DNA from: a virus
Lineage: Duplodnaviria; Caudoviricetes
Virus record (IMG/VR): IMGVR_UViG_3300044655_001017
Direction: 5' to 3' (one strand)
DNA length: 64,000 nucleotides
Shown here: in pieces, positions 1,776 through 64,000 of the stretch
Numbering within the stretch: the stretch's first letter is position 1
How the letters are laid out: the number at the start of each line of letters is the position of its first letter
The notes under the pieces: model-generated
What the model was told of the DNA's origin: nothing
The model's database searches: none
The model's input: the letters and a program-made list of their open reading frames with translations, nothing else
Made by a program: the position numbers and the translations under genes

Positions 1776-4700
1776 ATGGCTGAATTTAAATTAGGTAGAA
1801 TACGTTTTATATGGAAAGGTGCGTGGGCATCTTCGACCGCGTATTTAAAAGACGATATCATTAGAAATGGCGGTAAAACATATGTGTGTGTCGTTGGGCA
1901 TACTAGTTCTGCAGATTTTACAACAGATCTTAGTAATGTACCAACTAGATGGAATCAAGTATCTGACGGTACTGCATGGATGTCAGATTGGGCAATTAAC
2001 ACATATTATAGATTAAACGATGTAGTAAAGTATGGAGGTAAATTATATATTTGTACTACAACACACACATCTGCAGCAACTACTGCATTAGGGTTAGATG
2101 CTAATGCTGCTAACTGGGATGTGTATGCTACAGGTTTTAAATGGCAGTCAACTTGGACTACTTCAACAAAATATAGAGTAAACGAAGTAGTAAAATATGG
2201 CGGTATTATATATGTTTGTAATACTAATCATGTTTCAGCTGCAACTGCAACATTAGGGTTAGAAACTAACATTGGTTATTGGGACGTTTATCATAAAGGT
2301 TTTGATTATTTAGGACAATGGAGCGGCAGTTCAGTAAGATATAAAGCCAATGATTTAGTAAATTTTGGTGCAGATGTTTGGATTTGTATAACATACCATA
2401 CATCGAGTGCGTCATTTGTTGAGGCAAATTGGTCAAGATTTATCGAAGGATTAACTTACGAAAATACATGGTCAAGTGCTACTACATACCAACCAGGCGA
2501 CATTGTTGGGTATGGCGGTTACTCATATATCAGCAAAACAATAAACAGCAACGCCACTCCGTCTACAAGCACTACACACTGGGGATTATTTACTACTGGT
2601 TTTAACTTAATCGGTGATTGGGCATCTGCACAATCATATCAAGTTGGTAATGTTATAAGACTTGGCGGTTATACGTATGTTGCGATTTTAGACCATACAT
2701 CAAGCGGTTCAAACACACCACCGAATGCAACATATTGGTCACGATTAAATTCTGGTATTAAATGGGCAAACGTTAATAAATCATATACAGCAGTTGCGGG
2801 AACTAATGTTAGTGGGACAGGTTCATCTGCAACATTTAACGTCTCAACTTCTGGTACATCGTACACAGTTACCGTAAATGCAACCGGTACCGGTTATGCT
2901 GCAACTAACACTATTAAAATCTTAGGAACTGCAGTAGGCGGATTAAGTCCATTTAATGATATTTTAATTACCGTTGCTACTATTTCAGGTAGTGCAATTG
3001 CTACTATTACATCCACTGGTTATGCTGCAACTTGGGCAACTGCAACTGGATATGTTGCAGGCGATTCAATTACAGTTGGTGCAAATTCGTACATCTGTAT
3101 TCTTGCACATACTAGTGCTACTATTAATAGACCAGATAACGATGCATCAGGTACATACTGGAATGTATTATCAGCAGGATCGTCAACATCTGTATTAACA
3201 ACTACTGGTGATATTCCGTATATGAGCCAGTCTGGTCCGGCAAGATTAGGAATCGGTGTAGCTGGCCAAGTATTAAAAGTTTCATCGGCCTTAGTGCCAT
3301 CATGGGGTTATGTTGGTGTTATTGATCAAGTTTATTATGTAAGCCCTGCAGGTACTAATAATCCAGCACCTGATTATGGGGTTACTTTAGATCGCCCATG
3401 GTTAACTGTACGTTATGCAACCGAACAAGTCGAACGAGGTTCTTTAATTCCAAATGGATCGTATTTACTTGCAAGAAATAGAAGTTATATTCAACAGGAG
3501 GTAACTGGGTGGATCGATGCGCAAGTTACTGGTTCAATTGCACCTTATGTTAGTTTTACATACCCTACAAGTAAAGCAAGTTACCAAAGCTATATTGGAT
3601 ATGCAGTAGACGCATTAGTTTATGACTTATCACACGGCGGTAATGCTCGATCTGTTGCATTTGCACAAACCTATTATGCAAATTCTTCAAGAACACAAGA
3701 CGTTGCTACGTTTAATCGTATGGTTACTGTCATTAATGCAGTCATTGCAAATACCGCACCCGGTACTACCTATTCAGCAATTAACCGTATTAGTGATTCT
3801 ACTAGAACATTAGAATCAACTGCTACTACATTAGTAACTAATTTAGTAAAAATTATAACTGATGCATTAACTGCAGGTGTTAATACTAATATCCCGTCGG
3901 TAGTAAATACCAATTATACAATTTTTGTTAAGACTGGAATTTATTATGAAACATTACCTATAATTATTCCAGCTAACACTGCAATTGTAGGTGACGAATT
4001 ACGTTCTTCTAACATCCGACCAAGAAGTACATCTATTCCAACTACTGATACAACTTATAGTTTAGCAGCAGTGACTAGATTGAGTGCTATTATTGCAACG
4101 GTATTAACAAATAGCGCAGTAACGGTGTCATCAGGAAATACAGCAACACAAGTAACTACTCGCCCATCGAGTTCAATTTCGGCAAGTACACTTACTACGT
4201 TATTTACAAATTATAAAGATTATATCAATTTTTATATTAATAGTAGTGGTTCTGCACCTACATTAACTGGTACAGTAGCACCAACTACAGCTCAGGCAAA
4301 TTATGATGCAGTTGAAATACTAGAGGCAAATAAAGAATTTTTAGCGCAAGAGGCAGTTGCATATACTAACGTTACCTACAGCACATCTGTGTCAGCAACT
4401 GCTGCTAATGGTAATATTACAGTTACAAGTTCAACTAACTTTGCAGTTGGAATGCCAGTTGTGTTTAGTGGTACAGTTGGCGCATCAGGTATAGTAGTTG
4501 GAACTGTTTATTATGTTAAGACGTCGGCTGCTAACGTTCTTACTGTTGCAGCAACATCTGGCGGTACTACGTTAACATGGACTGCTGCATCAGGGTTAAC
4601 TGCTACTGTTAAATTATCATATGATTCTACAATGTGTGCTCGTGATGTTAGAGAATTAGTAAATGCTATAAAATATGATTTAGTGTATGTAGGTAACTAC

Positions 4701-7700
4701 AGAACTCTATTAGCTGCTCGTTATTACAGACGCAGTGTTCAAACTTCAGTACTTGAAGATATGTTCTATGTACGTAACGCAACTGGTTTACGTAATGTTA
4801 CAGTTCAAGGGTTAACTGGTACATTAGGAACTGCTAATGGATATGGAACACGACGACCAACTGCAGGTGCGTATGTTAGTTTAGATCCAGGTTGGGGTGC
4901 TGCTGATACGCGTACATGGATTTCTTCACGTAGTCCGTATATTCAAAATGTTACAACATTTGGTACCGGGTGTACTGGTTTAAAAATTGATGGTACATTA
5001 CATAACGGCGGGAACCGTTCTATTGTAGCAAACGATTTTACACAAATTATAAGTGACGGTATCGGTGCATGGTGTACAGGTACAAAGGCGTTAACTGAAT
5101 TAGTATCAGTATTCTCATATTACGCACATATTAGTTACCTAGCTGAAAACGGTGGTAAAATTCGTGCAACAAATGGTAATAGTTCTTACGGTACATATGG
5201 TACAGTTGCTGAGGGCGTTGATTCATCCGAAACTACATTAACTGCAACTGTTAACAACCGTGCTAGTCAAGCAAATATTTCAAATGTTGTAACAAATGCG
5301 GTTGATAAAATTTATCGTGTAGAATATTTAAATGCCGGCACTGGATATAACACTGCAACTTACTCATTTGTTGGTACAGGATATGGGGTTGCAACAGTAG
5401 CTAATGAATTTAGAGATAATGCTGTATATGAAACTCGTTTATTAACAAATGGTGCAAACTATGTAACAACATCAAATACCGGACAAGCTGGTAATACAAC
5501 ACAAGTTACTATTGCAGCAACTGATAGTGCAATTAGTTCAGCATATACCGGTATGAGAATTCAGTTAAATGGTGGTGCTGGTGCTGGACAAAGTGGTTAC
5601 ATTGTAAGTTATAATTCAGGATCAAAAATTGCGCTAGTTGCAAAAGAAAGTTTCCCAGCTATGACCGCAACTGCTACGACTGCAAGTTCGGATTTAATCA
5701 CAGTTGCAAGTACAAGTACGTTAACCGCAAACATGCCAATTTATTTTGGTGCAGCACTTGCTAATATTTCAGCGAATACTTTATATTACGTTAAAACTAT
5801 TTCAAGTACAACGCAATTTAGTATTAGTACAATTGCGGCTGGTTCTGTGTTTGATATTACTAGTGATACATCATCGCAAACAGTAGCAGTACACGCAGCA
5901 GGTTGGGATCATGCTGTTTTGGGTACGCCTATTGTATCTGCGTTAGATGTTACAACCACTTATACTATTGAACCAAGAATCGTTTTTTCTTCGCCAACTT
6001 ATAGTACTGCAGGAAACACAATTTCATCAAACTCATGGATTGATATAGCATATGGTGACACTATTGCTACATATACTGCAGTTAGTGCATCCGGTGGTTC
6101 TGGAGCTAGTGCTACATTTACTGTTGTAAGAACAGGCGTTGCATACTCAGTAACATTAGCATCCGGTGGTACCGGCTATGCAATTGGTAATTTTCTTCAA
6201 ATTGCAGGTACTAGTTTAGGTGGATCGTTAGGCAACGTGCTTGGTATTACAGTAACTAACGTAGTTAGCGGAACTGGTGTAATTACTAATTTTACTTATA
6301 GCGGATTTGGTGCAGGCGGTAACTTTGTTGCTATTACAAGTGCCGCAAGTACTACAACATTAATAAGTACAAACGGTTCATCATGGTCAGCAGGTGGAGC
6401 AATACTATCATCAAATTGGGTTGCTATTGCGTACGGTGTAGTAAGTGGTAATGGTTATTGGGTTACTGTACAAAATGGTTCTAATGTTACAGCTTATTCT
6501 ACAAACGGTGGAGTTTCGTGGACTCAAGGCGGGACATTAAGCTCAAATTCAAACTGGGCTTCCATTGCATACGGTAATGGTAAATTTATAGCAGTAGTAA
6601 AAGGATCACCTAGCACTGTTGCTAACATTACCTCAAACGGGGGAGTTAACTGGTCTACAACCGGAGCTCTTCCGTCAGATACTGGCTGGACTAGTATTGC
6701 ATATGGTGCAGGTACATGGGTAGTTGTATCATCTGGCGGTAATGCTGCAGCATATTCTACTAATGATGGAACGTCATGGACTGCTACGACTACGCCGTCT
6801 GTAGTATCATGGCAAAGTGTTACATACGGTAATGGTAAATTTGTAGCAGTAGCAAACGGTACAGCAGCAGCATATTCATTAGACGGTATTACATGGTATA
6901 GTGTAACTTTACCAGTAAGTTCAAACTGGTCAAAAGTTAGATATGGACAAGGGGTGTTTGCAATAGTATCAAGTTCATCAACTAATACATTATTATCGTC
7001 AGAAGACGGATTATTTTGGACTACTAGAACACTACCTGTTACTGCAGCGTGTTATGCAATTGCATTTGGAAGTTCTACTGCTGGCTCATCTATCACACCA
7101 TATTGGGCAATTTTGCCGCAATCAAATACATCTAACATGTACTTAATACTAGGTGCAACTGCTAGAGGACGTGTAAAAGTAACAAATGGTGCTATTAGTG
7201 AATTTAGAATCGTTGAGCCAGGTGGCAGTTATTTATCAGCACCAACTTTTACTATTACTGATCCAAATGCTACTACTGCATTTACCTATACAGTCAGAAC
7301 GGGAACTGGTGTATTAGCTAATCCAACATTTACTAATAGAGGAACGCAATATGCATCGTCAACAGCTACTGTAACTGGTAATGGATATACTGATATGTAT
7401 CAAGTTGGTAGTTATGTAAATGTATCCGGATTAATTAGTCAACCAATTCCAGGTTCAAATATTGTATTTACTGGAAATTCTACTGTTTATAAAGTAGTAG
7501 CAGTAACTAATTATCTAAGTTCAGGCGCAGGGATTGCACCATATAATGCAACTATTCAAGTTAGTCCTGTAATGTCAGCTGCACTTGCTCCTGCACACGC
7601 AGTAACCGCAACTATGCGTATTAACTATAGTCAAGTTAGGTTAACTGGGCACGATTTCTTAAACATTGGTACAGGTAATATTGCAAATACAAATTATCCA

Positions 7701-47091: not shown

Positions 47092-48018
47092 ATGGGTAAA
47101 TCGCTAGACGGTGTCCTTACAAAAAAAGCACACAAGACTGAAAAATTTGATGAGCAACAAATTAATGACATGCTGTTGTGTTCTGATACAGCTAACGGAT
47201 TTTTACATTTTTCAAGAAAATTCTTTCATATCCAACACTCGGTAAAAGGTAAACTATTATTTCAGCCATTTGATTATCAAGTTAATCTGTTAAATTGCTA
47301 TCATGATCATCGTTTTAATATCAATATGTTACCTCGTCAAAGTGGTAAAACAACCTGTGCATCTGCGTACTTGTTATGGTTTGCAATGTTTCATCCAGAT
47401 CAAACTATTCTAATTGCAGCGCACAAATATACTGGTGCTCAAGAGATTATGCAACGTATACGATACGGATACGAACTATGTCCGGACTTCTTACGTGCAG
47501 GGGTAGTAAGTTATAATAAAGGGTCTATGGAGTTTGATAACGGTTCTCGTATTGTAAGTCAAACTACTACTGGTACTACAGGACGAGGTATGTCTATTTC
47601 GTTATTGTATTGCGATGAGTTTGCGTTCTTACAACCTAACATTGCTGAAGAATTTTGGACTTCTATATCACCCACACTAGCAACTGGTGGACGTTGTATT
47701 ATTACATCTACACCAAATAGTGACGAAGATCAATTTGCTACTATATGGAAAGAAAGTCAACAGTTTTTTGACGAGTTTGGCAATGAGAAAGCAGACAAAG
47801 TTGGCATTAACGGTTTTTCTGGATTTAGATCAGATTGGTGGGATCATCCAGATCGTGACGATGCATGGAAACAAGAAGAGCTTGGTCGTATAGGTGAGGA
47901 AAAGTTTAGACGTGAATACGGTTGTATTGTGCATGATTCAGTTGTAACTGTTAAATGGCCATCTGGAAAAATTGAAAAACTAACAATGGGCGATATTATG
48001 CGATTATTAAGTTCATAG
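47092..48018 (+). CDS. gp17: Terminase large subunit, N-terminal ATPase part (277 aa) plus N-half of split intein (31 aa)
   Basis: Walker A LPRQSGKT, GRGMS, Walker B LLYCDEFAF, ITSTPN; then FRREYG followed by CIVHDSVV (intein block A) and an early stop. Confidence 0.95.
   Translation: MGKSLDGVLTKKAHKTEKFDEQQINDMLLCSDTANGFLHFSRKFFHIQHSVKGKLLFQPFDYQVNLLNCYHDHRFNINMLPRQSGKTTCASAYLLWFAMFHPDQTILIAAHKYTGAQEIMQRIRYGYELCPDFLRAGVVSYNKGSMEFDNGSRIVSQTTTGTTGRGMSISLLYCDEFAFLQPNIAEEFWTSISPTLATGGRCIITSTPNSDEDQFATIWKESQQFFDEFGNEKADKVGINGFSGFRSDWWDHPDRDDAWKQEELGRIGEEKFRREYGCIVHDSVVTVKWPSGKIEKLTMGDIMRLLSS
47923..48015 (+). mobile_element. Split intein N-fragment (IntN, 31 aa)
   Basis: CIVHDSVVTVKWPSGKIEKLTMGDIMRLLSS: Cys1 and block A pattern. 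Confidence 0.88.
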
Positions 48019-48031
48019 TATATGACGAAAT

Positions 48032-48039
48032 GATAAATA
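48032..48039 (+). promoter_or_regulatory. Late promoter GATAAATA of the homing endonuclease
   Basis: Lies 5 nt before ATG 48045, the same geometry as at 43129 and 49898. Confidence 0.55.
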
Positions 48040-48044
48040 CTAGC

Positions 48045-48824
48045 ATGTATTATGTATATATTTATAAAACCCCAATTAACATCACAGTAAGTTATATGAG
48101 TATTTTAGCAAATCAACCTTTTTATATTGGGAAGGGCCACGGTAGGCGATATAAAGATCATTTATCAGAAACTGCAGAAACTACGTGTAATCATTTAAAA
48201 GTTGCGGTAATTTCTAGATTAGTCGCGCAAAATCTAACTCCAGTTATAGAAATGTATCAAACTGAGTTAACAGATGCTGCAGCAAAGGCTCTTGAAATTG
48301 ATCTGATTAACCAGTACGGCCGATTAATTGATCATGCCGGCCCGTTAACAAATAAAACACTAGGCGGAGATGGGTGTACTGGATTTAAACATACTGAAGA
48401 AACCAAACAATTAATGAGTATTCAGAGAAAAGGAACCATTCCATATAATAAAGGTATCGCTCGTCCAGGAATTGGTGGACGTACATTAGGTACTAAATGG
48501 TCTGAATCTGAAAGAGAAACTCAACTGTTAGTTAGAAGCCAACCAGGTTATTATGAGTTTAACAAATGTCCTATAAGAGCAAAAAAAATAAGTGACTCCA
48601 AAAAAGGAAAACCTGGATCAGCAAAAGACAAACAATGGTTTAATAATGGAGTTATTGAGACCTATAAAGATATATGCCCTGACGGATTTGTTAAGGGAAG
48701 ACTTCCTAGATTACAAATATCAAAGAGAGGCATGTGTTGGTATAATAATGGAGTAATTAACAAACAATTTAAAGAAGGAACAGAACTTGATGGATTTACA
48801 CGCGGAAGAATTAATAAAAAATAA
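48045..48824 (+). mobile_element. Free-standing GIY-YIG homing endonuclease inserted in the split intein
   Basis: YYVYIY...FYIGKG.G.R...H, E..LI..YG, N.T.GGDG, NUMOD3-like HTEETKQLMS, two W(F/Y)NNG...GF..GR repeats. Confidence 0.9.
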
Positions 48825-49899
48825 GTTAGGATTAACGGTGCTAACTGACACCGGCTGGAGCAAGTTTGACGGAATCTTAGTTAAAGGTGTTAAAAAGATA
48901 CTTCATGTAACTACACAACGTCATTCACTTAAAAGCACTCCTGATCATAAATATTTTCTTAATGGGTTTAAACCGATAGAAGGTAGATTATTATTGCCTA
49001 AACAAAAAATTTTAGTTAATGGCAAACTTGATAATGTCGTGTCTGTTAAGTGGCTGTTAGATGAAGAACCAGTATACGATCTGTTTAATGTTGAACAGAA
49101 TCACAGGTATTATGCAAATAACGTTCTAATCAAAAATTGCGAATTTTTAGTATACGACGAAACTCTTATTAACAGTTTAAAATTAGTAGAGTTATACGGT
49201 AAAGAACCACTAATGAAAATGGGGCAAGTGCGATGGTATAAAAAACCAACTGCAGGTAATTTATATTTAATTGCGTTAGATCCTAGTTTAGGAACAGGTG
49301 GGGACTATTCGGCAATATCAGTATTTGAATTACCATCAATGGTGCAAGTTGCAGAATGGCATCATAACATTACTCCTATACAAGGACAGGTAAAGTTATT
49401 TAGAGATATATTATTATATATACAAGATGAAATTGGATCAGATCAGTATAATTCAATATATTGGTCAGTAGAAAATAATACAGTAGGTGAGAGCGCATTA
49501 GTAGTAATTGACAATTTAGGAGAAGAAACATTTCCGGGATTATTTGTAAGTGAACCGGGCAGAAAGGGGCATGTTCGTAAGTTTCGCAAAGGATTTAACA
49601 CAACTTTTAATAATAAAATAGCTGCATGTTCAAAATTAAAATATTTTGTTGAAGAAGATAAAATGGTTATTAATAGTAAACCATTAATAACTGAATTAAA
49701 ATCTTTTATTGCACATGGCATTAGTTTTAAAGGTAAACCGGGCCAGCATGATGATTTAGTAGCAGCATTATTACTAATAGTAAGAATGATTGATATACTA
49801 GCAGAATGGGATCCGTTAGTGTTTGAAAAAATGCGGATTGAAGATCGAATTGAGGACTGGGAAGCACCTCTACCAATATTTGTTTCCTCTAATATGTGA
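48790..49899 (+). CDS. gp17: C-half of split intein (116 aa) fused to terminase large subunit nuclease domain (253 aa)
   Basis: Block B STPDH; blocks F/G VYDLFNVEQNHRYYANNVLIKN followed by CEF; RNase H-like LIALDPSLGTGGDYSA, VENN.VG, HDDLV; AGGA RBS inside the endonuclease gene. Confidence 0.93.
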   Translation: MDLHAEELIKNKLGLTVLTDTGWSKFDGILVKGVKKILHVTTQRHSLKSTPDHKYFLNGFKPIEGRLLLPKQKILVNGKLDNVVSVKWLLDEEPVYDLFNVEQNHRYYANNVLIKNCEFLVYDETLINSLKLVELYGKEPLMKMGQVRWYKKPTAGNLYLIALDPSLGTGGDYSAISVFELPSMVQVAEWHHNITPIQGQVKLFRDILLYIQDEIGSDQYNSIYWSVENNTVGESALVVIDNLGEETFPGLFVSEPGRKGHVRKFRKGFNTTFNNKIAACSKLKYFVEEDKMVINSKPLITELKSFIAHGISFKGKPGQHDDLVAALLLIVRMIDILAEWDPLVFEKMRIEDRIEDWEAPLPIFVSSNM

Positions 49900-53912: not shown

Positions 53913-54911
53913 ATGGCAACACTAGCAGAAATCAGAGCAAAATTAAAAGCGGCAGAAACACGTAGCACAGATAGCAACACAGGTGGTGATAAATCAATTT
54001 ATCCTTTCTGGACTATTAAAAATGGCGGTGAAGCAGTTTTTAGATTCTTACCAGACGGCAACCCAAACAATACTTTTTTCTGGGCTGAACGTTCTGTAAT
54101 CAAATTACCTTTTGCAGGTATCAAAGGTCGCACAGATAGCAAACCAGTAGTAGTAAATGTTCCATGCGTTGAAATGTACAACGACGGTGCAGTATGTCCA
54201 ATTCTTTCAGAAGTGCGTCCTTGGTTTAAAGATCCTTCATTAGAAGAAATGGGCCGTAAATACTGGAAAAAGAAGTCATATATCTTCCACGGCTTTGTTC
54301 CTGAAGATGGCTTAGACGAAAAAGAAAAACCAGAAAATCCAATTCGCAGATTTGTTATTGGACCACAAATTTATAAATTAATCCATGCAGCATTGCTTGA
54401 TGATGAATTTACAGAATTACCTACAGACTATGTAAACGGTTTTGATTTCCGTTTAAAAGTTGGTTCTAAAGGTGGTTATGCAGATTACTCTACTTCTACT
54501 TGGAGCAGACGTACACGTCCGCTTGGTGAAGAAGAACGTGCAGCAATTGATAAATTCGGGTTACCTGACTTATCAGAATACTTACCTAAAAAACCAAACG
54601 AAGTTGAACTTAAAGTTATGATGGAAATGTTTGAAGCATCAGTAAATGGTGAAGCATATGACGTTGAACGTTGGGGCAAATACTTTAGACCATATGGTAT
54701 TTCAGCAGACGAATCTACATCATCTGCAACTGCTACAGTAGCTCCGGTTATTGCACCAGTAGCACCTGTAGTACATACACCCGAAGAAGCTATGCCTTGG
54801 GATGAACCTGCTACTACCTATACTCCACAGCCTGCAGTAGCTGAATCAGCACCTGCAAGTGATTCAAGAGCAGCTGATATCTTAGCAAAAATTAGAAATC
54901 GCGGCGCTTAA
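53913..54911 (+). CDS. gp32: Single-stranded DNA-binding protein (T4 gp32-like)
   Basis: A.FRFLPDG, CP......PW, GRKYWKKKSY, G.DFRLK, YADYSTS.W; at the head of the uvsX/uvsY/uvsW cluster. Confidence 0.85.
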   Translation: MATLAEIRAKLKAAETRSTDSNTGGDKSIYPFWTIKNGGEAVFRFLPDGNPNNTFFWAERSVIKLPFAGIKGRTDSKPVVVNVPCVEMYNDGAVCPILSEVRPWFKDPSLEEMGRKYWKKKSYIFHGFVPEDGLDEKEKPENPIRRFVIGPQIYKLIHAALLDDEFTELPTDYVNGFDFRLKVGSKGGYADYSTSTWSRRTRPLGEEERAAIDKFGLPDLSEYLPKKPNEVELKVMMEMFEASVNGEAYDVERWGKYFRPYGISADESTSSATATVAPVIAPVAPVVHTPEEAMPWDEPATTYTPQPAVAESAPASDSRAADILAKIRNRGA

Positions 54912-54923
54912 CACAACAGTGAT

Positions 54924-54951
54924 TAACGTAGCAAGGGGTCTTGCTACGTTA
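54924..54951. other. Perfect 12-bp stem-loop between ssb and uvsX, no U-tract
   Basis: TAACGTAGCAAG-GGGT-CTTGCTACGTTA. Confidence 0.8.
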
Positions 54952-54970
54952 CATTATTAGGAGTATAACC

Positions 54971-56059
54971 ATGGCAACAAAACCCTTTGATTTAACAAAA
55001 TTTCGAAAAACTCTAACAAAAAGTATTGACGGCCTAGGCGTAGGCTTTAATGATCCTACTGATTGGGTCGGTACAGGTAATTATGCACTTAATTACCTTA
55101 TTAGTTCAGACTTCCACAAAGGCATTCCACTAGGTAAAGTAACTGTGTTTGCAGGCGAGTCAGGTGCAGGCAAAAGTTATATTTGTTCAGGTAACATTGT
55201 TAAAAATGCACAAGAACAAGGAATATACGTAGTACTAATTGATTCAGAAAACGCACTTGACGAATCATGGCTACACGCATTAGGTGTAGATACTACTGAA
55301 GAAAAACTTCTTAAACTTAATATGGCTATGATTGATGATGTAGCTAAAACTATTAGTGAGTTTATGAAAGAATATAAAGCAATGGAAGACAAACCAAAAG
55401 TATTGTTTGTAGTAGATTCGTTAGGTATGTTACTAACTCCAACTGATATTAATCAATTTGAAGCGGGCGATTTAAAAGGTGACATGGGTCGTAAACCTAA
55501 AGCACTTACTGCACTTGTTCGTAATTGTGTTAATATGTTTGGTAGTCACAACGTTGGATTAGTGTGTACTAACCACACGTATGCAAGTCAAGATATGTTT
55601 GATCCGGATGATAAAATATCAGGTGGTCAAGGATTTGTTTATGCATCAAGCATTGTAGTAGCAATGAAAAAACTTAAACTAAAAGAAGACGAAGACGGTA
55701 ACAAAGTTAGTGAAGTTAACGGCATTCGCGCCTCTTGTAAGATTATGAAAACACGTTATGCTAAACCATTTGAGACTTTGCAAATTAAAATCCCATATAC
55801 AACCGGTATGAATCCTTTTAGTGGTTTAGTTGACTTATTTGAAAAAAAGAACATTTTGAAAAAAGATGGTAATAGACTTAAATACGTGGCTACCGACGGT
55901 ACTGAAATTAAACAATATCGTAAGGAGTGGGAAAGTAATGCTAACGGTGCTCTTGAAAGAGCAATGGCTGAATTTACCGACGAACCTGTGTTATTAGATG
56001 TACTTGATGATGCAGATGATATCAACGACTACGTTACGGAGGACGAAAATGTTGAATGA
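54971..56059 (+). CDS. uvsX: RecA-like recombinase UvsX
   Basis: TGNYALNYLIS, Walker A AGESGAGKS, IDSENALD, VVDSLGML, NHTY, SGGQGFVYASSIVV. Confidence 0.95.
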   Translation: MATKPFDLTKFRKTLTKSIDGLGVGFNDPTDWVGTGNYALNYLISSDFHKGIPLGKVTVFAGESGAGKSYICSGNIVKNAQEQGIYVVLIDSENALDESWLHALGVDTTEEKLLKLNMAMIDDVAKTISEFMKEYKAMEDKPKVLFVVDSLGMLLTPTDINQFEAGDLKGDMGRKPKALTALVRNCVNMFGSHNVGLVCTNHTYASQDMFDPDDKISGGQGFVYASSIVVAMKKLKLKEDEDGNKVSEVNGIRASCKIMKTRYAKPFETLQIKIPYTTGMNPFSGLVDLFEKKNILKKDGNRLKYVATDGTEIKQYRKEWESNANGALERAMAEFTDEPVLLDVLDDADDINDYVTEDENVE

Positions 56060-56282
56060 AACACAAATTGCTGATGTATGGTTAATGTTTGCAGATTATA
56101 TTGATAAGAAACAAGCAGAGATTGCTGCTGAAAGATTTATTGAATTACTTGCAGATTTTGGAGCTACAGATCGTACATTTTTAGGTGCAACTGGAATTGA
56201 CCCAACGTTAGATCAAGCAATTAATTATTATTTAGAAGATAATGAAGACGAAGACGACGGCTATAACGACTTGGAGTTCTAA
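56049..56282 (+). CDS. Small acidic hypothetical protein (77 aa)
   Basis: GAGGA RBS; overlaps the uvsX stop and is coupled to uvsY. Confidence 0.6.
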   Translation: MLNETQIADVWLMFADYIDKKQAEIAAERFIELLADFGATDRTFLGATGIDPTLDQAINYYLEDNEDEDDGYNDLEF

Positions 56283-56737
56283 TGAGTTGGTATTCTACAA
56301 TTACTAGGGATATTACACGATTACCAGATGGTATTTTGCACTTTGAATCAGAATTGACAGATGCCAAAAAAGAATGTAAAATAGCAGGAAACGTAGAAAA
56401 GGCATCTGCAGCAATGCCAGGCATTGTAGAACACAGATATGGACAGCTTCAAGAAATTGAAGCTATCCTAGAGTTCCTTAACATTGAACTTAAACGATTA
56501 AAGAGTTATCACTTTAGAAAGTATTTAGAAACATACGCAAGGGCATTAAGCAGTCGTGATTGTGAAAAATATGTAGAAGGCGAAGATGAAGTAATTGAGT
56601 ATGAAAAAATTATAAATGAATTTGCGTTAATAAGAAATCAATGGTTGGGTATTACAAAAGCCTTAGATCAAAAATCGTATGCATTAAGTAATATTATACG
56701 ATTAAGATGTGCAGGCATGGAAGACGCAACCCTTTAA
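56282..56737 (+). CDS. uvsY: Recombination mediator UvsY-like
   Basis: Helical ~150 aa protein between uvsX and uvsW; FRKYLE.Y.RALS.RD.EKY..G, W..I.K.L..K pattern. Confidence 0.75.
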   Translation: MSWYSTITRDITRLPDGILHFESELTDAKKECKIAGNVEKASAAMPGIVEHRYGQLQEIEAILEFLNIELKRLKSYHFRKYLETYARALSSRDCEKYVEGEDEVIEYEKIINEFALIRNQWLGITKALDQKSYALSNIIRLRCAGMEDATL

Positions 56738-56744
56738 ATTAATA

Positions 56745-56765
56745 TGACGGGCTTAGTGCCCGTCA
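56745..56765. other. GC-rich hairpin TGACGGGC-TTAGT-GCCCGTCA (attenuator or processing site)
   Basis: 8-bp perfect stem, intergenic, weak U-tract. Confidence 0.6.
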
Positions 56766-56785
56766 CTACTTTAGGTGTATAACAC

Positions 56786-58000
56786 ATGAACACAATTGAC
56801 AATCTGCTTCATTTTGTATTTCTTGAAGCTATGACAACCCCTCTGCCGTTCTCATCAAGAGATAACCGTACATTGCAAAGTTTACATACTGCAATGCAAA
56901 CTGATACATACATTACCGAAAAACAAGGTAATTTATTACTTCAAATAATAAGCAATGAAATTTACGCGCCATTTATGCTGTTAGCTAATGAACACTATGC
57001 AGATTATATCAATAACCCAGTATGGAAGAAATCATTTCGTATATTACCAGAGGTAAAACGAATATATCATATTCCTGCAGGATCTGACCAAATTAACATT
57101 AACTTGTTAAAAGAAAACTATACTGGTGTAATTGCAATTGATTTTACGTTTTCAAGTACGATTCGTAATGAATTAAAACCGCTGTCTGATGTGTTATGGC
57201 AAGTTAAATCCGGATCGTTATACTATGCAGATTTTACTGAATCTAATCTTGTAACTATTATACAATTATTAGATCCTTATAAGTTTGAAGTTGAACCAGA
57301 GTTACGAGATTACTACAACACAATTAGACTATGGGATAAACAAGATTTTAAAGATATGTATGATGTACACAAATTAGAACATACTAGATTTCAAACCCTT
57401 ATTTCAAAAGATTTAGAATCTAATGATTCCACCATCATAGTTGATAGACGACTAAGATATCAATATTCAACAACTGTTGAATGCCAGACTACTAATGAAT
57501 TAACTAAACAAATTGCAACCCGTGAAAAATCTAAAGTTTGGATTGATAGTAATACATATTCAATATCCAATGTAGTTGCATCATTAGTAGAGCTACAACG
57601 ATTTCCGTTATTAGTAGTATTTGAACAATCAACTGATTTTACAACCATAACACAGTTTAACGAGTTATCTCAGGCGCTAACTGATCACGGCATCACTGAT
57701 AACATTGGATTCCATTTTAGATTAGACAATACACCTGATGGAAAAATGTTTAATGACGGGATTGGAAAAAGACAGTATAATAGTGTACTAAACAATGATA
57801 CAAAGGTTGCAGCAGTACTTGGTGGTAAATTACCAAAATTCTTCCTTAAAGAAACTTGGAGACCAATGAGTGTTCTTTGTATTAAAAATACACTAAGACA
57901 TAGCAAAACTGCAGTGTATGCGAATAGCAGTGATTTAATCATATCGTATACGCACGTAGAACCAATTATAGAAACGAGGAACAAATGGGAGTCAAACTAA
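56786..58000 (+). CDS. Hypothetical protein (404 aa)
   Basis: Long ORF overlapping the uvsW start; no motif recognised. Confidence 0.7.
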   Translation: MNTIDNLLHFVFLEAMTTPLPFSSRDNRTLQSLHTAMQTDTYITEKQGNLLLQIISNEIYAPFMLLANEHYADYINNPVWKKSFRILPEVKRIYHIPAGSDQININLLKENYTGVIAIDFTFSSTIRNELKPLSDVLWQVKSGSLYYADFTESNLVTIIQLLDPYKFEVEPELRDYYNTIRLWDKQDFKDMYDVHKLEHTRFQTLISKDLESNDSTIIVDRRLRYQYSTTVECQTTNELTKQIATREKSKVWIDSNTYSISNVVASLVELQRFPLLVVFEQSTDFTTITQFNELSQALTDHGITDNIGFHFRLDNTPDGKMFNDGIGKRQYNSVLNNDTKVAAVLGGKLPKFFLKETWRPMSVLCIKNTLRHSKTAVYANSSDLIISYTHVEPIIETRNKWESN

Positions 58001-59448
58001 TTATAAAAGATGAAGTTAATATTAAGTTTGAACATTTACCATTAGATGCAAGGAAGAAGCTAGCAAGTGCATTCAAATACGAAGTGCCGTATGCTAGATA
58101 TCAACCTTCGTTTAAGTTGGGCAGATGGGATGGTACAGTTAGCTTATTTGGTATAGGCGGTACTGGTTACTTAAACAACTTAGAATCGATACTTGCAATA
58201 CTTAATAAGATGGGAGTTGCAATAGACGACATTGAAGATTTGCGTAAACCATTTAATTTAGATTTTACACCAATTACTGAAACATATTGGGCAGACTTAG
58301 GCAAAGTATGGCCAGTGGGACATAATGATGTTGGTAAGCCTATTATGTTAAGAGATTATCAAGTAGACGCTGTTAATAAGTTTTTACAACAACCCCAGGC
58401 ATTACAGGAAATCGCAACTGGCGCCGGAAAAACGATAACAACTGCTACACTAGCACATATATGCGAGTCACAAGGGCGTACAATAGTTATTGTACCAAAT
58501 AAAAGTTTAGTAGAACAAACTCATGAAGACTTCGTAAACGTTGATTTAGATGTAGGCATGTACTATGGTGATCGTAAAGATTTAAACAAAACACATACTA
58601 TTTGTACTTGGCAAAGCCTTAACATATTAGATAAGAAAAGTAAAAACTCAGAACACGATATTATAACATTAGCAGAATTTTTAGACGGTGTAGCAGCAGT
58701 AATTGTTGACGAGGTACACATGGCAAAAGCTGACGTATTAAAAAATTTACTTACTCACAACTTATGTAATGCACCAATTCGATGGGGGCTAACTGGTACA
58801 ATACCTAAAGAAAAGTTTGAATACGAACAAATATTTGCAAGTATAGGTCCTGTCATTGGCGGAATTAAGGCACACGAATTACAAGATGCAGGTGTGCTGT
58901 CAGCGTGCCATGTTAAGGTATTACAATTAATTGATTTGCCATCATTTAGATCTTATTCAGATGAAATAACATATCAAGTTACTAATAAAGATCGAATGAT
59001 GTTTATTAGCGATACTATTAAGACTATTGCAGAAACTGGCAATACGTTAGTGTTAGTTGGTAGAATTGAAAGTGGAAAATTGTTAATTGAAAATATTCCA
59101 GATGCAGTATTTGTATCAGGTAATGTAAAAACAAAAGATAGAAAAACAGAGTACGACGAAATTAAAACATCAACAAACAAAATTATCGTAGCAACATATG
59201 GGGTAGCAGCAGTAGGTATTAACATTCCAAGAATTTTTAATTTGGTGTTAATTGAATCGGGTAAAAGTTTTACACGAGTTATTCAAAGTATTGGTAGAGG
59301 AATTAGAAAGGCACATGATAAAGATTTTGTGCAAATTTATGACATTACTAGTACCTGCAAGTATGCTAAAAAACACTTAACAGAAAGAAAAAAATTCTAT
59401 AAAGATGCAAAATATGAATTTGAAATTAATAAGGTAGATTGGAAATGA
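57985..59448 (+). CDS. uvsW: Superfamily 2 DNA helicase UvsW
   Basis: LRDYQ, IATGAGKT, DEVH, GLTGT, GINIP, QSIGRGIRK. Confidence 0.95.
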   Translation: MGVKLIIKDEVNIKFEHLPLDARKKLASAFKYEVPYARYQPSFKLGRWDGTVSLFGIGGTGYLNNLESILAILNKMGVAIDDIEDLRKPFNLDFTPITETYWADLGKVWPVGHNDVGKPIMLRDYQVDAVNKFLQQPQALQEIATGAGKTITTATLAHICESQGRTIVIVPNKSLVEQTHEDFVNVDLDVGMYYGDRKDLNKTHTICTWQSLNILDKKSKNSEHDIITLAEFLDGVAAVIVDEVHMAKADVLKNLLTHNLCNAPIRWGLTGTIPKEKFEYEQIFASIGPVIGGIKAHELQDAGVLSACHVKVLQLIDLPSFRSYSDEITYQVTNKDRMMFISDTIKTIAETGNTLVLVGRIESGKLLIENIPDAVFVSGNVKTKDRKTEYDEIKTSTNKIIVATYGVAAVGINIPRIFNLVLIESGKSFTRVIQSIGRGIRKAHDKDFVQIYDITSTCKYAKKHLTERKKFYKDAKYEFEINKVDWK

Positions 59449-59951
59449 ATATTTTAACTGTAAATAACTACGCGTTTTCGTTAAACAATTTACCTGACGA
59501 AGTTGACGATAGTATGCAATTTAGTATATTAGATAACAGTAATCCGCAAGATCCGGATTTCTTTTTTATGCCATTAATTTATTTAGAATCGTTTAATGCA
59601 CCTGCGATTGTATTAAAAATTGGCAATGATGAAGTAACTATGCCAATTGATTGGTGTGTAGCAGTAGGCGACGGTAGTAGTGCTACAAATATTGAAATCA
59701 TTCCGTTAACTAGCTTAAATGATAGAGGATTTGATGCATTAGTGTTTAATCCAATATCTGATTTTAGAATTGAATTTAAAAAAATAGAAATTATAAATTT
59801 TTACAATGATGTTAAATGGTACTTTCCAAAAATGAAAGTAGGACATTTATTAACTACCCCATTACAATTAATTCATCAACCGGCGTGTTCATTTTTTGTA
59901 AAAGAAGTATCACGACATAGTGAGATGATTCATTTAGATAAGTTATTATAG
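59445..59951 (+). CDS. Hypothetical protein, possibly a degenerate Hint-like fold
   Basis: ATGA overlap with the uvsW stop; the fold guess rests on strand pattern only. Confidence 0.6.
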   Translation: MNILTVNNYAFSLNNLPDEVDDSMQFSILDNSNPQDPDFFFMPLIYLESFNAPAIVLKIGNDEVTMPIDWCVAVGDGSSATNIEIIPLTSLNDRGFDALVFNPISDFRIEFKKIEIINFYNDVKWYFPKMKVGHLLTTPLQLIHQPACSFFVKEVSRHSEMIHLDKLL

Positions 59952-59960
59952 GATTATATT

Positions 59961-60608
59961 ATGGCATTTAAAGTAGCATATTTTACACCAACTATTATTG
60001 CGGCGGATCAAGTTCCGCCTGTAGAATTTAGTAAATTATTTAATTTAGTAGAAGATTTACATAACCATCCGGAACTAAATGAACACGAAAATCCGTTTAT
60101 TAGTATTCGAGGAGGCCAGCATGTTCAAATATTTCCTGCTAGAATTGAATTAGATGTTGAATGGCTTAAAATATGGATTGAGAAAGTTTCACAAAACTAT
60201 ATGGATGTAGTATCAGAACAAACTGGTAGTACTGATTTTAAATTATGTAAACCGGTGGTTACTAATATTTGGACTACCCGTCAGTACGCTGGGCATTATC
60301 ATGAGATGCATACTCATTTAGGAAGTAATATTAGCGGTAACATTTACATTAGTGCCCCGCAGTTATCGGACACAGGTAACTTATCTGATGGTAAATTTGT
60401 TTTGAAATTACCACAGACAAAAGACATCTCTAGATTTATTATGCAAGACGCGTGGCAAACAGATCCAACACCTGGTACATTTGTGGTATTTCCAAGTTGT
60501 TTATCACACACCGTTTATCCATGGCAAGGTGATGGTCATAGAACTGTAGTGTCATTTGAAGCATCACTAGTTCCTATTGAAAATAACAATGACGAAGGTG
60601 ACGAATGA
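59961..60608 (+). CDS. Putative 2OG-Fe(II) oxygenase (TIGR02466-like)
   Basis: HEMHTH...ISGNIY, P.PGTFVVFPSCLSHTVYP....RTVVSF. Confidence 0.82.
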   Translation: MAFKVAYFTPTIIAADQVPPVEFSKLFNLVEDLHNHPELNEHENPFISIRGGQHVQIFPARIELDVEWLKIWIEKVSQNYMDVVSEQTGSTDFKLCKPVVTNIWTTRQYAGHYHEMHTHLGSNISGNIYISAPQLSDTGNLSDGKFVLKLPQTKDISRFIMQDAWQTDPTPGTFVVFPSCLSHTVYPWQGDGHRTVVSFEASLVPIENNNDEGDE

Positions 60609-61084
60609 GCAACAAAGTAGAACTAAAAGAAAAAATTAGTGCAGTTGATCTTAATATCCGTGAACTATGGGACGAGCTTGACGAAGAAAATCAAAAAGCT
60701 CTTAAAGGCGAACTATTCATTTTAAATAGGTACATTAGTAATGTTAAAACAAGTGATGGCGAAATACAATCAAAGTTTGTAATTGCAGTTAACGATTACT
60801 ATAATAAAAATTGGTTTTTATTACAGAAGCATCCTAAATTGTTATGGTTGCTATTATGTATGTGTAGTTACAATGGAGAAAAAACATTTTATCATGAATG
60901 GATTGGTAATAAGAAAAAAGACGGCAACGATAATAAAAAGATACAATTTTTAGCCGAATTAAACCCTAGTATGAAAATGTCTGAAGTTGAGATGCTAGTA
61001 AAAATAACACCTGCTAAAGACTTAAATAGGCTAGCTAAAGATTACGGATTTGAAGATAAAGACATTAAAAAGAAATTAAAATGA
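60605..61084 (+). CDS. gp62: Clamp loader small subunit (T4 gp62-like)
   Basis: FILNRYIS, VN..YN..WF.L.KHP.L.W.LLC, EWIG.KKK, LAELNP.MK..E pattern; replication context. Confidence 0.6.
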   Translation: MSNKVELKEKISAVDLNIRELWDELDEENQKALKGELFILNRYISNVKTSDGEIQSKFVIAVNDYYNKNWFLLQKHPKLLWLLLCMCSYNGEKTFYHEWIGNKKKDGNDNKKIQFLAELNPSMKMSEVEMLVKITPAKDLNRLAKDYGFEDKDIKKKLK

Positions 61085-61773
61085 TGAGTTTACAACCAAA
61101 GCCATTTGAATGTCAATACTGTAAGAGTAAATTTGTAAAAGAATCTACTCTTATGGTTCATGTCTGCGAATCAAAGCGCAGAGCGTTAGCACAAACAGAA
61201 AAGCACGTAGTAATTGGATATGAAACATATAACACGTTTTTTCAAAAGACACAAAATTTTTATGGTATGAAAACGTACGAAAACTTTTGCAAGAGTCCAT
61301 ATTATAATGCATTTGTTAAGTTTGGAAGTTTTGTTAGTAATGTAAAACCGTTATACCCTGATAAGTTTATTGTGTATGTAGTTACAAGCGGCACCAAGTT
61401 AGATCATTGGTGTAGAGACGACTTATACGATAGGTATGTAGTTGATCTAATTAAAACTGAATCTGTTGAAACTGCATTAGAACGTAGCATTAATCATATG
61501 ATTGAGTGGGGCGATACTAATAAAGCACAGTGGAATCATTACTTTTTGTATGTAAGTTTGAATAGGGCAATGTATGATATTAAAGACGGAAAGATAAGCC
61601 CGTGGCTGGTGTTAAATTCAAACTCGGGTAAGTTAATGATAAAAAAGTTTAATGACGAACAGTTGTCTGCAATAAGCAGTGTGTTAGATATACCATTTTG
61701 GATGCATAAATTTCATAAACTAGCAGCCGATGCAGAGCTTGTACGAACAGTGGTTAAGGAGAGTAGCATTTGA
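61081..61773 (+). CDS. Zinc-finger protein (N-terminal C2HC/C2H2-like finger)
   Basis: FECQYCKSKFVKESTLMVHVC. Confidence 0.7.
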   Translation: MMSLQPKPFECQYCKSKFVKESTLMVHVCESKRRALAQTEKHVVIGYETYNTFFQKTQNFYGMKTYENFCKSPYYNAFVKFGSFVSNVKPLYPDKFIVYVVTSGTKLDHWCRDDLYDRYVVDLIKTESVETALERSINHMIEWGDTNKAQWNHYFLYVSLNRAMYDIKDGKISPWLVLNSNSGKLMIKKFNDEQLSAISSVLDIPFWMHKFHKLAADAELVRTVVKESSI

Positions 61774-61827
61774 GCATAAATATTGAGGTTGAAACATTAC
61801 ATCTTTATCAATGGAGGTTCATTACCT

Positions 61828-62388
61828 ATGCCAGATGTAGACATTGATTTTGCTAATAGAGACCTGGCATTAGCAAAGTTAAAACATGTTACGGCATCTA
61901 TTAGTACTCAAAAAAAACACAATACAGGCATTTATTGTCACAATATTCCACACAATCCGTTAACTGGTGTGAGTACAATTGGCTATAAAGAAGCCGAAGA
62001 CAGAGGTTATTTTAAAATTGATTTTCTTAATGTTATGATATATAAAGATGTTAAGAACAACGATCATCTATTACATTTAATGGGAACTGAACCAATATGG
62101 GAACTATTACTTCAAGAAGACTTTGTAAATCTATTATTTCATATAAACGGGCACATAGATATTCTGAGACAGATGCAGCCGACTTCGGTGGAACAATTAG
62201 CTGCAGTCCTAGCAATGATAAGACCGGCGAAACGTTATTTGATTGGGAAAGAATGGACTACGGTGATGACAGAAATATGGGATCACACAGACACTGACGC
62301 TGGGTACGCGTTTCGCAAATCACATGCGATCGCGTATGCAATTGCAATTGTAGTGCAAATGAATTTAATTTGTGAACAATTAAATTAG
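61828..62388 (+). CDS. dnaE: Miniature DNA polymerase III alpha (DnaE, C-family)-like catalytic core, 186 aa
   Basis: GGAGG RBS at 61813; MPDVDIDF, HNTGIY, E..GYFKIDFL, P.SVEQLAAVLAMIRP and YAFRKSHAIAYA are collinear with the DnaE motifs. Confidence 0.8.
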   Translation: MPDVDIDFANRDLALAKLKHVTASISTQKKHNTGIYCHNIPHNPLTGVSTIGYKEAEDRGYFKIDFLNVMIYKDVKNNDHLLHLMGTEPIWELLLQEDFVNLLFHINGHIDILRQMQPTSVEQLAAVLAMIRPAKRYLIGKEWTTVMTEIWDHTDTDAGYAFRKSHAIAYAIAIVVQMNLICEQLN

Positions 62389-62759
62389 TGGGGTTTTCGA
62401 ACGAGTTGAACAGATTTACGTTTGACTCGTTTAATTGTTAGGTTCATTAAGTTAACAACTGGTCCTAATATAATGCGAGTATCTTTACTATTAAATGTTT
62501 TAATAGCGTATGCAAACGGTCGTATTTCTTCTCTGCAAAAAATTGAAATTGGAAATTGTCGATTTGATTCCCACCACCAAATTTCACCTATCTCTAAAAA
62601 TGCTGCTTTATCTGTAGCAGCTAATATTGCATTTAAGTCGTAGAAGCTTGTTACGTATTGATCTTGATTGATAATTATACCAACGTATTCATCATTTCCG
62701 TAATTAAGGACACTAATAAATGGTAAATTTTGTTCTATGTTATCTCTTAAGTTTGCCAT
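62385..62759 (-). CDS. Hypothetical protein (124 aa)
   Basis: Fills the gap between plus-strand genes; protein-like content (WWWESNRQFPISIF). Confidence 0.65.
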   Translation of the reverse strand: MANLRDNIEQNLPFISVLNYGNDEYVGIIINQDQYVTSFYDLNAILAATDKAAFLEIGEIWWWESNRQFPISIFCREEIRPFAYAIKTFNSKDTRIILGPVVNLMNLTIKRVKRKSVQLVRKPH

Positions 62760-62783
62760 AAATATATATAAAGGATATTGCCA

Positions 62784-63590
62784 ATGCAAAAAATATCAAG
62801 TTATTTATACCCAAATAGGATCGAACTTCTCATCGATCTGGCTGGATTTACAGTGGAGTTTACATCAGTGTATCAAAGAAACGTAAAAATTTATAATGGT
62901 ATTGATAATACCATTGAGTTCGATATTAAGAACGCAGATCAAAAACGAATTGACTTAACTACGTTAAGTACTATCGAATTAAACATCATGGATGTAACTG
63001 GTACTGCCCTGCCAAATAGTCCATATAAAGTTATTCCAATTACTGCAAAAAAAGGAATAGCGTATTCAACTATACCAGAAGAAGATTTAGTAGAGCTATC
63101 ATCTCAATATTTAAAATATAGCGTATCTGCTGTTAAAGACGGTATGGATGTTATGCTATATGCAGATACTCGATTTGGTGCAGTAGGTACTATTGAATTA
63201 GTAGGCGATGCGATGCCAACATTCCGTGATGAGATCGTCTATAACACGTTTACTGGTGAAATTGATTTTATGGGAAATGTTGTGCATCACACTAGTTCTA
63301 TTCCTTCTACATTTTACGAAGCAGTGCCGACTACTCAATTGTCATTTGAAATTTCAATTACTGGGTTTATTGGAAAAATATGGTTAGAAGGTACTACTGC
63401 TTCAACTATTAGCGTTAACTCTTACTTACACGCGCAAACGCTTGCATCACAATCTATACTAGTAGCAAGATCAACTCCTGTAGTGTTTAACAATATTGAT
63501 GTTGCATATTTTAAATACTTTAGAGTATTATATCAAGGTAACCACCCAATCAATCCAACCGGAACAGTTGACAAAGTGACTGTTTGGTAG
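62784..63590 (+). CDS. Hypothetical, probably virion structural protein
   Basis: AAGGA RBS; CATAAATA at 62757; beta-rich; YNGIDNTIEF.IKN.DQK motif. Confidence 0.55.
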   Translation: MQKISSYLYPNRIELLIDLAGFTVEFTSVYQRNVKIYNGIDNTIEFDIKNADQKRIDLTTLSTIELNIMDVTGTALPNSPYKVIPITAKKGIAYSTIPEEDLVELSSQYLKYSVSAVKDGMDVMLYADTRFGAVGTIELVGDAMPTFRDEIVYNTFTGEIDFMGNVVHHTSSIPSTFYEAVPTTQLSFEISITGFIGKIWLEGTTASTISVNSYLHAQTLASQSILVARSTPVVFNNIDVAYFKYFRVLYQGNHPINPTGTVDKVTVW

Positions 63591-63596
63591 TATAAT
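63568..63596 (+). promoter_or_regulatory. Perfect sigma70 promoter TTGACA-N17-TATAAT for primase, overlapping the 3' end of the upstream CDS
   Basis: TTGACA 63568-63573, TATAAT 63591-63596. Confidence 0.88.
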
Positions 63597-63620: not shown

Positions 63621-64000
63621 ATGAACCTTATTACAGATACATTAATGATGTACTGGCAATCTGGTAGACGAACTAAAAAAACTCCAAGTGGATGGATAAC
63701 TGGCAACGCTCCTTGTTGCCAGGATACCCGATATCGTGGCGGATTTATTGTAAACGATGGCGATGCAGTTACATTTCACTGCTTCAATTGTAGCTTTAAA
63801 GCTAGTTGGCAACCAGGTCGGCACATTAGTAAAAATATGAAAGACTTTATGCGGTACTTGCATATGAGCGATTCTGAAATCTCTAAACTTAGTTTAGAAG
63901 CATTTCGATTAGAAGCATCAGAAACTCTTAGAGAAGAGCTGATGTTACCTACATTTGAAAATCGTACATTACCTATTGATGCGGCGCTAATAAGTTCATT
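63621..64000 (+). CDS. gp61: DNA primase (gp61-like) N-terminal zinc-binding domain, truncated by window end
   Basis: Frame is open to 64000; GW...NAPCC...RGG...FHCFNC.FKASW. Confidence 0.75.
   Translation, partial: MNLITDTLMMYWQSGRRTKKTPSGWITGNAPCCQDTRYRGGFIVNDGDAVTFHCFNCSFKASWQPGRHISKNMKDFMRYLHMSDSEISKLSLEAFRLEASETLREELMLPTFENRTLPIDAALISS

Follow-up and report, generated by a model that had tools for sequence, protein, structure and literature searches.

The gene at positions 61828-62388 of IMG/VR virus record IMGVR_UViG_3300044655_001017 probably (with a likelihood of roughly 80%) codes for one of the two proteins, the C-terminal subunit, that make up a minimal C-family (Pol III alpha-like) polymerase characteristic of T4-like group 2.2 jumbo phages. 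The window, meaning the whole 64,000-nucleotide stretch of that record which was analysed, carries this subunit, here called the C-unit; its partner, the N-unit, was found in relatives. A split minimal Pol III alpha of group 2.2 jumbo phages was described from comparative genomics by Iyer, Anantharaman, Krishnan, Burroughs and Aravind (2021, Viruses 13:63; PMC7824862, sections 3.4.1 and 3.5, Fig. 3b), who found that it accompanies a family B polymerase and suggested a role in the synthesis of one strand or in repair. [quoted passage not shown] The window gene is a new ortholog from an uncultured lake-water phage, with no difference in kind; the preliminary description of this DNA, which had offered it as a candidate for an undescribed system, is in that respect superseded and amounts to a correct rediscovery of a phenomenon already in the literature. 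Full-text literature searches turned up neither a further paper nor any experimental work on this split enzyme, and the omics paper on phage PA5oct does not mention the C-unit gene. Added here to the main text of Iyer et al. are the break point, the invariant residues, high-confidence models, the steric-gate histidine, rare natural fusions of the two units, and the conserved zinc-finger and convergent-gene neighbours.

The C-unit gene and its functional codons are located as follows.

61828-62388, plus strand: probable C-terminal unit of the split minimal Pol III alpha-like polymerase (P0001), assigned from phrog_11778 (E 3e-65), an AlphaFold2 model, VIA-align and dN/dS
61813-61817, plus strand: GGAGG ribosome-binding site read in the sequence, 10 nt 5′ of the C-unit ATG
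61834-61848, plus strand: codons of D3, D5 and D7 (PDVDID); D3 and D5 are the metal-binding aspartates equivalent to E. coli D401 and D403
62014-62022, plus strand: codons of K63, I64 and D65 (KIDFL); D65 is the third catalytic aspartate (E. coli D555) and K63 is equivalent to K553
62221-62226, plus strand: codons of R132 and P133, the RP motif of the fingers (E. coli R639-P640), aligned to ALFRP or ALYRP
62317-62325, plus strand: codons of K164, S165 and H166, the KSH motif (E. coli K758-S759-H760), aligned to FNKSH of the E. coli, Taq and Mtb alpha subunits

The ORF as read in the sequence begins with the ATG at 61828, has a stop codon ending at 62388, and encodes 186 aa. A strong GGAGG start at MPDVDIDF and motifs in DnaE order had been noticed from the sequence and are borne out; most C-unit homologues in the family alignment likewise start at M-P-D. 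The motifs are MPDVDIDF (residues 1-8), HNTGIY (31-36), GYFKIDFL (60-67), PTSVEQLAAVLAMIRP (118-133) and YAFRKSHAIAYA (160-171), and they make up the catalytic-aspartate strands of the palm and a reduced fingers domain. In HMMER alignments the counterpart of PDVDID is MPDIDIDF in Mtb DnaE1 and Taq alpha, and KIDFL is aligned to KFDFL of E. coli alpha within residues 539-641; altogether, three collinear blocks are shared with Pol III alpha (PDxDxD, KxDFL through to RP, and FxKSHAxAY). The phrog_11778 "DNA polymerase" profile matches with an E value of 3.3e-65 (C-unit residues 3-184 on profile positions 8-194 of 197), and the sequences of PDB entries that match are Pol III alpha chains only, whether searched by phmmer (E 2e-4) or with a profile of 100 C-unit sequences (E 1.7e-5). 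On the C-unit protein, the Pfam fingers domain PF17657 scores 13.5 bits, below its gathering cut-off of 22, and the Pfam scan gave no match to the palm domain PF07733. In E. coli, H760 is the proposed steric-gate residue against ribonucleotides (PMC8485763); because this histidine is kept as H166, the use of dNTPs would fit the sequence.

An AlphaFold2 model of the C-unit, computed with the family alignment as input, has a pLDDT of 95 and a pTM of 0.87, and D3, D5 and D65 sit on its strands 4-8 and 64-68. Comparison of such a model with Pol III alpha had been proposed as a check, and it returned C-family polymerases only. The top 14 Foldseek matches in the PDB are all Pol III alpha (probability 0.35-1.0), and VIA-align superposes 184 of the 186 residues at Z 9.7 and an rmsd of 3.5-3.8 Å. 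The ranges aligned are 461-837 of Taq alpha, 419-807 of Mtb DnaE1, 400-780 of E. coli alpha (Z 8.8) and 971-1295 of PolC (Z 9.6); the next unrelated structural match has a Z of 3.2. Profile, sequence and structure matches agree on a C-family (DnaE-like) palm and fingers beginning at the catalytic aspartate motif, as first proposed.

The chain begins at the equivalent of E. coli residue 399-400, hence the PHP domain is absent from it. Between D7 and K63 there are 56 residues versus 148 in E. coli (D405-K553), so the thumb is missing. The spacing from K63/D65 to RP is 67 residues versus 84 in E. coli, that from RP to KSH is 31 versus 118, and the fingers lack about 90 residues that correspond to E. 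coli ~641-739. The chain ends ~20 residues past H166 and the model alignment stops at E. coli ~780; the C-terminal clamp-binding, HhH and OB domains are absent. The preliminary description had correctly perceived the shrunken D403-D555 interval and the missing accessory domains, the alignment lying within E. coli 400-780, as well as the persistence of all three aspartates: D3, D5 and D65, corresponding to E. coli D401, D403 and D555, are invariant in 100 sequences. In the bacterial enzymes the deleted fingers segment holds the conserved basic residues of the LRRAMGKK stretch, which may take part in triphosphate binding, so that dNTP binding by the phage enzyme may differ or be weak. Also missing from the C-unit is the N-terminal third of the core, where a strand, the Gly-Ser loop and a helix would make the Pol-beta-like palm whole. 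A model devoid of a Pol-beta-like palm had been named as grounds for abandoning the polymerase assignment; the three aspartates do lie on palm strands, but the palm is complete only with the partner unit.

The partner is best defined in phage 121Q, where the N-unit is a separate 180-aa ORF ~31 kb from the C-unit and matches PF07733 at positions 16-95 (E 2.4e-10). The C-terminal end of the 121Q N-unit reads GLGRGSS and then, at the terminus, EFLKW; the equivalent stretch of E. coli DnaE continues directly into MPDFDVDF, and thus the phage enzyme is cut exactly before the catalytic strand. N-units of many phages are 168-180 aa long, and the GxGRGSS loop is kept in at least 95% of 56 N-unit sequences; in relatives, the N-unit contributes helices, a short strand and this G-x-G-R-G-S-S triphosphate-binding loop to the palm. 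The N-unit family is abundant like the C-unit family, with at least 8,000 candidates. Within the 64-kb window, tblastn with the 121Q N-unit found nothing better than E 1.3, in keeping with the earlier remark that no other DnaE piece lies there. The 404-aa ORF at 56786-58000 was considered as a partner and set aside, having no Pfam or PHROG match and no similarity to 121Q gp9; gp9 itself was rejected as a DnaE piece, being a DnaQ-like exonuclease.

The two units are joined in one ORF in three rare metagenomic clusters, P0364 (375 aa), P0391 and P0392 (376 aa), of which P0391 and P0392 are 78-81% identical and come from different samples. The first was found among 50%-identity representatives and the other two by a follow-up search; P0364 is located as follows.

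1066-2193 of contig L124: fused N-unit and C-unit gene P0364, followed by the convergent small gene

The PF07733 match runs over the junction in the fused proteins, and in the alignment a split N-unit followed directly by a split C-unit accounts for the whole of the fused protein. A model of the fused protein (pLDDT 90, pTM 0.86) superposes on the ternary complex of Taq Pol III alpha at Z 22.1 and an rmsd of 3.1 Å over 293 residues, on Mtb DnaE1 at Z 21.8 and on PolC at Z 20.5. These scores are more than double that of the C-unit alone, which suggests that the halves have been modelled in native palm geometry; the relative modelled, on which the docking of the halves depends, is only 34% identical to the window C-unit. 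Generic Pol-beta-fold enzymes (MenT1, CCA-adding enzyme, Cid1 and Pol beta) match the fused model at Z 3.3-4.8 over residues ~102-275, an alignment that straddles the fusion junction near residue 188, and because it does so, a minimal nucleotidyltransferase core would appear from the model to need both proteins.

At the other end of the fused model, the N-unit opens with a small strand/helix domain of ~80 residues that is modelled with lower confidence (pLDDT 58-84). The PF07733 match in the fused protein starts near residue 97, outside this N-terminal domain, and VIA alignments of the fused model to Pol III alpha start inside the PHP region of the targets.

With no intein to join them, the N-unit and C-unit are expected to assemble non-covalently into a heterodimer of ~360 aa with a complete active site, and this heterodimer is predicted to add dNTPs to a primer on a template. 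Because the thumb and the clamp-binding, PHP and OB domains are all missing, its synthesis would be distributive, and it would more likely be an auxiliary beside the family B replicase, in gap filling, recombination-dependent synthesis or early primer extension. The family B polymerase is encoded in IMG/VR contigs G003 and G005, 17-22 kb from the N-unit, and in 121Q, ~50 kb from the N-unit if the linear record is read as circularly permuted; no match to it was obtained in the incomplete fragments G001, G002 and G004. The preliminary description had also considered that the gene might be one subunit of a multi-gene split Pol III, and had reserved the case that complementary fragments elsewhere would reconstitute an ordinary split Pol III. 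A split polymerase is supported, but one divided between only two genes and reduced to a miniature core: searches of relatives found the N-unit but nothing that corresponds to the PHP, thumb, clamp-binding or OB domains (a Pfam scan of the fused form and of the G003 N-unit, 177 aa long, gave no PHP match), and for that reason the units do not rebuild an ordinary Pol III.

The absence of a thumb to hold primer-template DNA counts against a templated polymerase of two chains, and the heterodimer might instead serve as a terminal transferase, nucleotidylate a protein or primer, or handle modified nucleotides such as 7-deazaguanine. This is unlikely, even with the loss of the thumb and ~90 fingers residues, the lack of a clamp-binding or OB domain, and the presence of a family B replicase both according to Iyer et al. 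(2021) and in the relatives, because the retained RP and KSH motifs, the latter with the steric-gate histidine, are fingers motifs of replicative Pol III alpha, and because the fused model superposes at Z 20-22 on Taq alpha and PolC in their ternary complexes with DNA. Against a role with deazaguanine in particular, members of the family are present in 121Q and PA5oct, among other phages that are not known to have deazaguanine DNA.

Considerably less probable is the explanation preferred in the preliminary description, that the 186-aa C-unit folds and catalyses alone as a minimal nucleotidyltransferase or polymerase. The three catalytic aspartates and the fingers motifs are on one chain, and the isolated C-unit is predicted with a pLDDT of 95, but the chain starts at the DxD strand without the preceding strand, G-S loop and helix that define a Pol-beta-like fold, matches of generic nucleotidyltransferases to the fused model take residues from both halves, and natural fusions of the two units exist. 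The genomes of relatives also speak against it. Exactly one N-unit and one C-unit are encoded by each of the five complete cultured phages (121Q, Atu_ph07, PA5oct, XacN1 and Phosso), where 15-220 kb separate them, and one copy of each is also present in two IMG/VR contigs that are 92% and 100% complete, so that the units co-occur in 7 of 7 complete or near-complete relatives. One C-unit is also found on four of five large contigs that were retrieved through the N-unit. The N-unit is absent from the IMG/VR fragments G001, G002, G004, G006 and G007, all of them incomplete; G001, with a C-unit 91% identical to that of the window, is 48% complete.

There is a negligible chance that the halves of the heterodimer are joined by protein trans-splicing. 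DnaE of cyanobacteria such as Ssp and Npu is encoded by two distant genes for full-size halves that carry intein fragments and are trans-spliced at a different site; the phage enzyme is likewise a DnaE homologue split between distant genes, but it is miniaturised and has no intein. N-units stop 0-12 residues past EFLK and C-units start at PDxDxD or at most ~16 residues before it, so that intein halves of ~100 and 35 aa could not fit; the C-unit ATG follows the preceding stop codon after just 15 in-frame codons; no Hint or intein Pfam match was found on the C-unit or on the one N-unit scanned; and the tiling of the fused protein by the split units, without extra sequence, excludes intein halves.

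The C-unit ORF is real and under strong purifying selection, with a dN/dS of 0.07-0.11 against seven close relatives. Among 100 C-unit sequences of 30-78% identity, D3, D5, K63, D65 and P133 are invariant, and D7, H31, G34, R132, K135, K163 and H166 are conserved in at least 90%. In a collection of 5.8 billion proteins there are at least 7,991 C-unit clusters at 90% identity, and nearly all of the 120 of these that were listed are 185-200 aa long; some homologues carry the JGI annotation "DNA polymerase III alpha subunit". Searched exhaustively, the 50%-identity representatives include 402 C-unit clusters, and among the matches listed, those that span the whole query are 179-219 aa. By tblastn, full-length homologues are present in 96 cultured jumbo-phage records, with identities of 57% in Atu_ph07, 52% in Phosso, 45% in the PA5oct group, 42% in XacN1 and 40% in the 121Q/PBECO4 group, and IMG/VR holds more than 560 homologues. 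An identical C-unit protein is present on a 355-kb contig, and the window phage recurs in at least 18 lake-water metagenome runs. Two lake metatranscriptome runs of one study yielded short contigs over 62075-62269 that are 94-96% identical, a weak hint of expression, since presence in an RNA library does not prove transcription.

Length and aspartate conservation among homologues had been proposed as the measure of decay; the lengths, the aspartates and the dN/dS are all conserved, and the C-unit is accordingly not a decaying fragment. The idea of a pseudogene from a captured host DnaE, suggested by coverage of only ~16% of a DnaE and by Pfam Pol III alpha models that fall below their cut-offs, is refuted by the dN/dS of 0.07-0.11, by a length kept over thousands of clusters with invariant catalytic residues, by microsynteny kept from Escherichia to Agrobacterium phages and, weakly, by the related RNA-library contigs that cover part of the gene.

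The surroundings of the C-unit gene contain the following features.

53913-59448, plus strand: T4-type recombination/replication block of gp32-like SSB, UvsX, UvsY, a 404-aa ORF and UvsW helicase, identified by PHROG and Pfam
61081-61773, plus strand: C2H2-type zinc-finger protein of 230 aa (phrog_11058, E 1.6e-55)
62385-62789, minus strand: convergent small gene of 134 aa (phrog_11637, E 3e-29)
62778-63590, plus strand: virion-structural-like protein (phrog_14467, E 5e-6), syntenic in 121Q, PA5oct, Atu_ph07 and Phosso
63621-64000, plus strand: 5′ part of a DNA primase gene that runs off the window (phrog_47, E 4e-8)

The C-unit closes a same-strand run of SSB, UvsX, UvsY, the 404-aa ORF, UvsW, two proteins of unknown function, a 2OG-Fe(II) oxygenase and the zinc-finger protein, and the gene order of the recombination/replication block is as in phage 121Q; the window also holds tail sheath and terminase genes. 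The zinc-finger gene lies within ~1.5 kb 5′ of the C-unit in six of the seven relatives' loci able to hold it, from G005 to 121Q; in XacN1 no such gene was found. The convergent gene, whose stop codon overlaps that of the C-unit by 4 nt, has the same position and orientation in seven of eight relatives, the contig with the fused gene included. Atlas searches returned no function for either neighbour. The zinc-finger protein and the primase had been recognised as neighbours in the preliminary description, and the phrog_11058 and phrog_47 matches uphold both; a gp62-like clamp loader subunit had been named as well, but the ORFs at 59439-59951 and 60605-61084 match only PHROGs of unknown function. 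In contigs with an identical C-unit, the complete primase gene encodes a Toprim protein of 325 aa, and the next gene a DnaB-like helicase. A perfect sigma-70 consensus promoter (TTGACA-17-TATAAT) is situated at 63568-63596, directly 5′ of the primase gene, and except for this promoter, the scan for promoters and terminators gave only background-level matches.

Several other features of the window were observed. The 2OG-Fe(II) oxygenase gene (59961-60608; PF13759, E 8e-18) is in the same place in contigs with an identical C-unit. The ORF at 56786-58000 between UvsY and UvsW is 403-404 aa long in all such contigs, and its slot is taken in 121Q by the DnaQ-like exonuclease. The large terminase gene seems to be interrupted (47092-49899): the ORF at 47092-48018 encodes the N-terminal/ATPase part and that at 48787-49899 the C-terminal part (phrog_36964), and between them is a homing-endonuclease-like ORF (48030-48824; phrog_314), which may signify an intron or intein or the insertion of a free-standing endonuclease. 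On L003, an ENA contig with an identical C-unit, the UvsW helicase gene has a Hint/LAGLIDADG intein and gives products of 711 aa and 279 aa, and an extra NUMOD3 endonuclease ORF is located between SSB and UvsX. These elements (L003 coordinates 857-1621 and 4614-7621) are absent from the window; hence mobile elements vary between near-clonal lake phages.

Compared with DnaE (E. coli, Taq and Mtb) and PolC, the phage polymerase shares a Pol-beta-like palm with three aspartates and a lysine, the RP and KSH motifs of the fingers, and the G-S loop, which in the phage is located on the partner N-unit. It differs in that the catalytic core is divided between two polypeptides, the C-unit does not reach the Pfam cut-offs, ~90 fingers residues are deleted, and the PHP, thumb, clamp-binding motif, HhH and OB are wanting from the C-unit. 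With nucleotidyltransferases of the Pol-beta fold (MenT toxins, the head of the CCA-adding enzyme, Cid1/TUTases and the palm of Pol beta) the phage enzyme shares the core fold; that likeness is far weaker than the likeness to Pol III alpha, and in those enzymes the core is one chain and has no DnaE-type fingers.

A more ambitious reading, which is tentative and rather doubtful, is that the pair of N-unit and C-unit is self-sufficient, a two-chain second polymerase of ~360 residues in the replisome of T4-like jumbo phages, whose neighbours replace the contacts of the thumb and clamp. Such a polymerase might, for example, take over the products of the primase or extend recombination intermediates, with the products of the zinc-finger gene and the convergent small gene standing in for the missing thumb or clamp contacts. 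If this is true, the pair would be the smallest C-family polymerase known and a living model of the ancestral Pol III core.

As the C-terminal half of a two-protein polymerase, the C-unit belongs to a family that is very abundant in freshwater and other metagenomes, and the split polymerase is present in cultivable, well-studied phages (121Q, PBECO4, PA5oct, Atu_ph07 and XacN1). The natural single-chain fusions are an easy construct for a first assay. Reduced roughly to the catalytic core of a bacterial replicase and divided over two chains, the enzyme offers a compact system in which to learn what a C-family active site requires, and it bears on how Pol III may have looked before it gained its PHP, thumb, clamp and OB modules.
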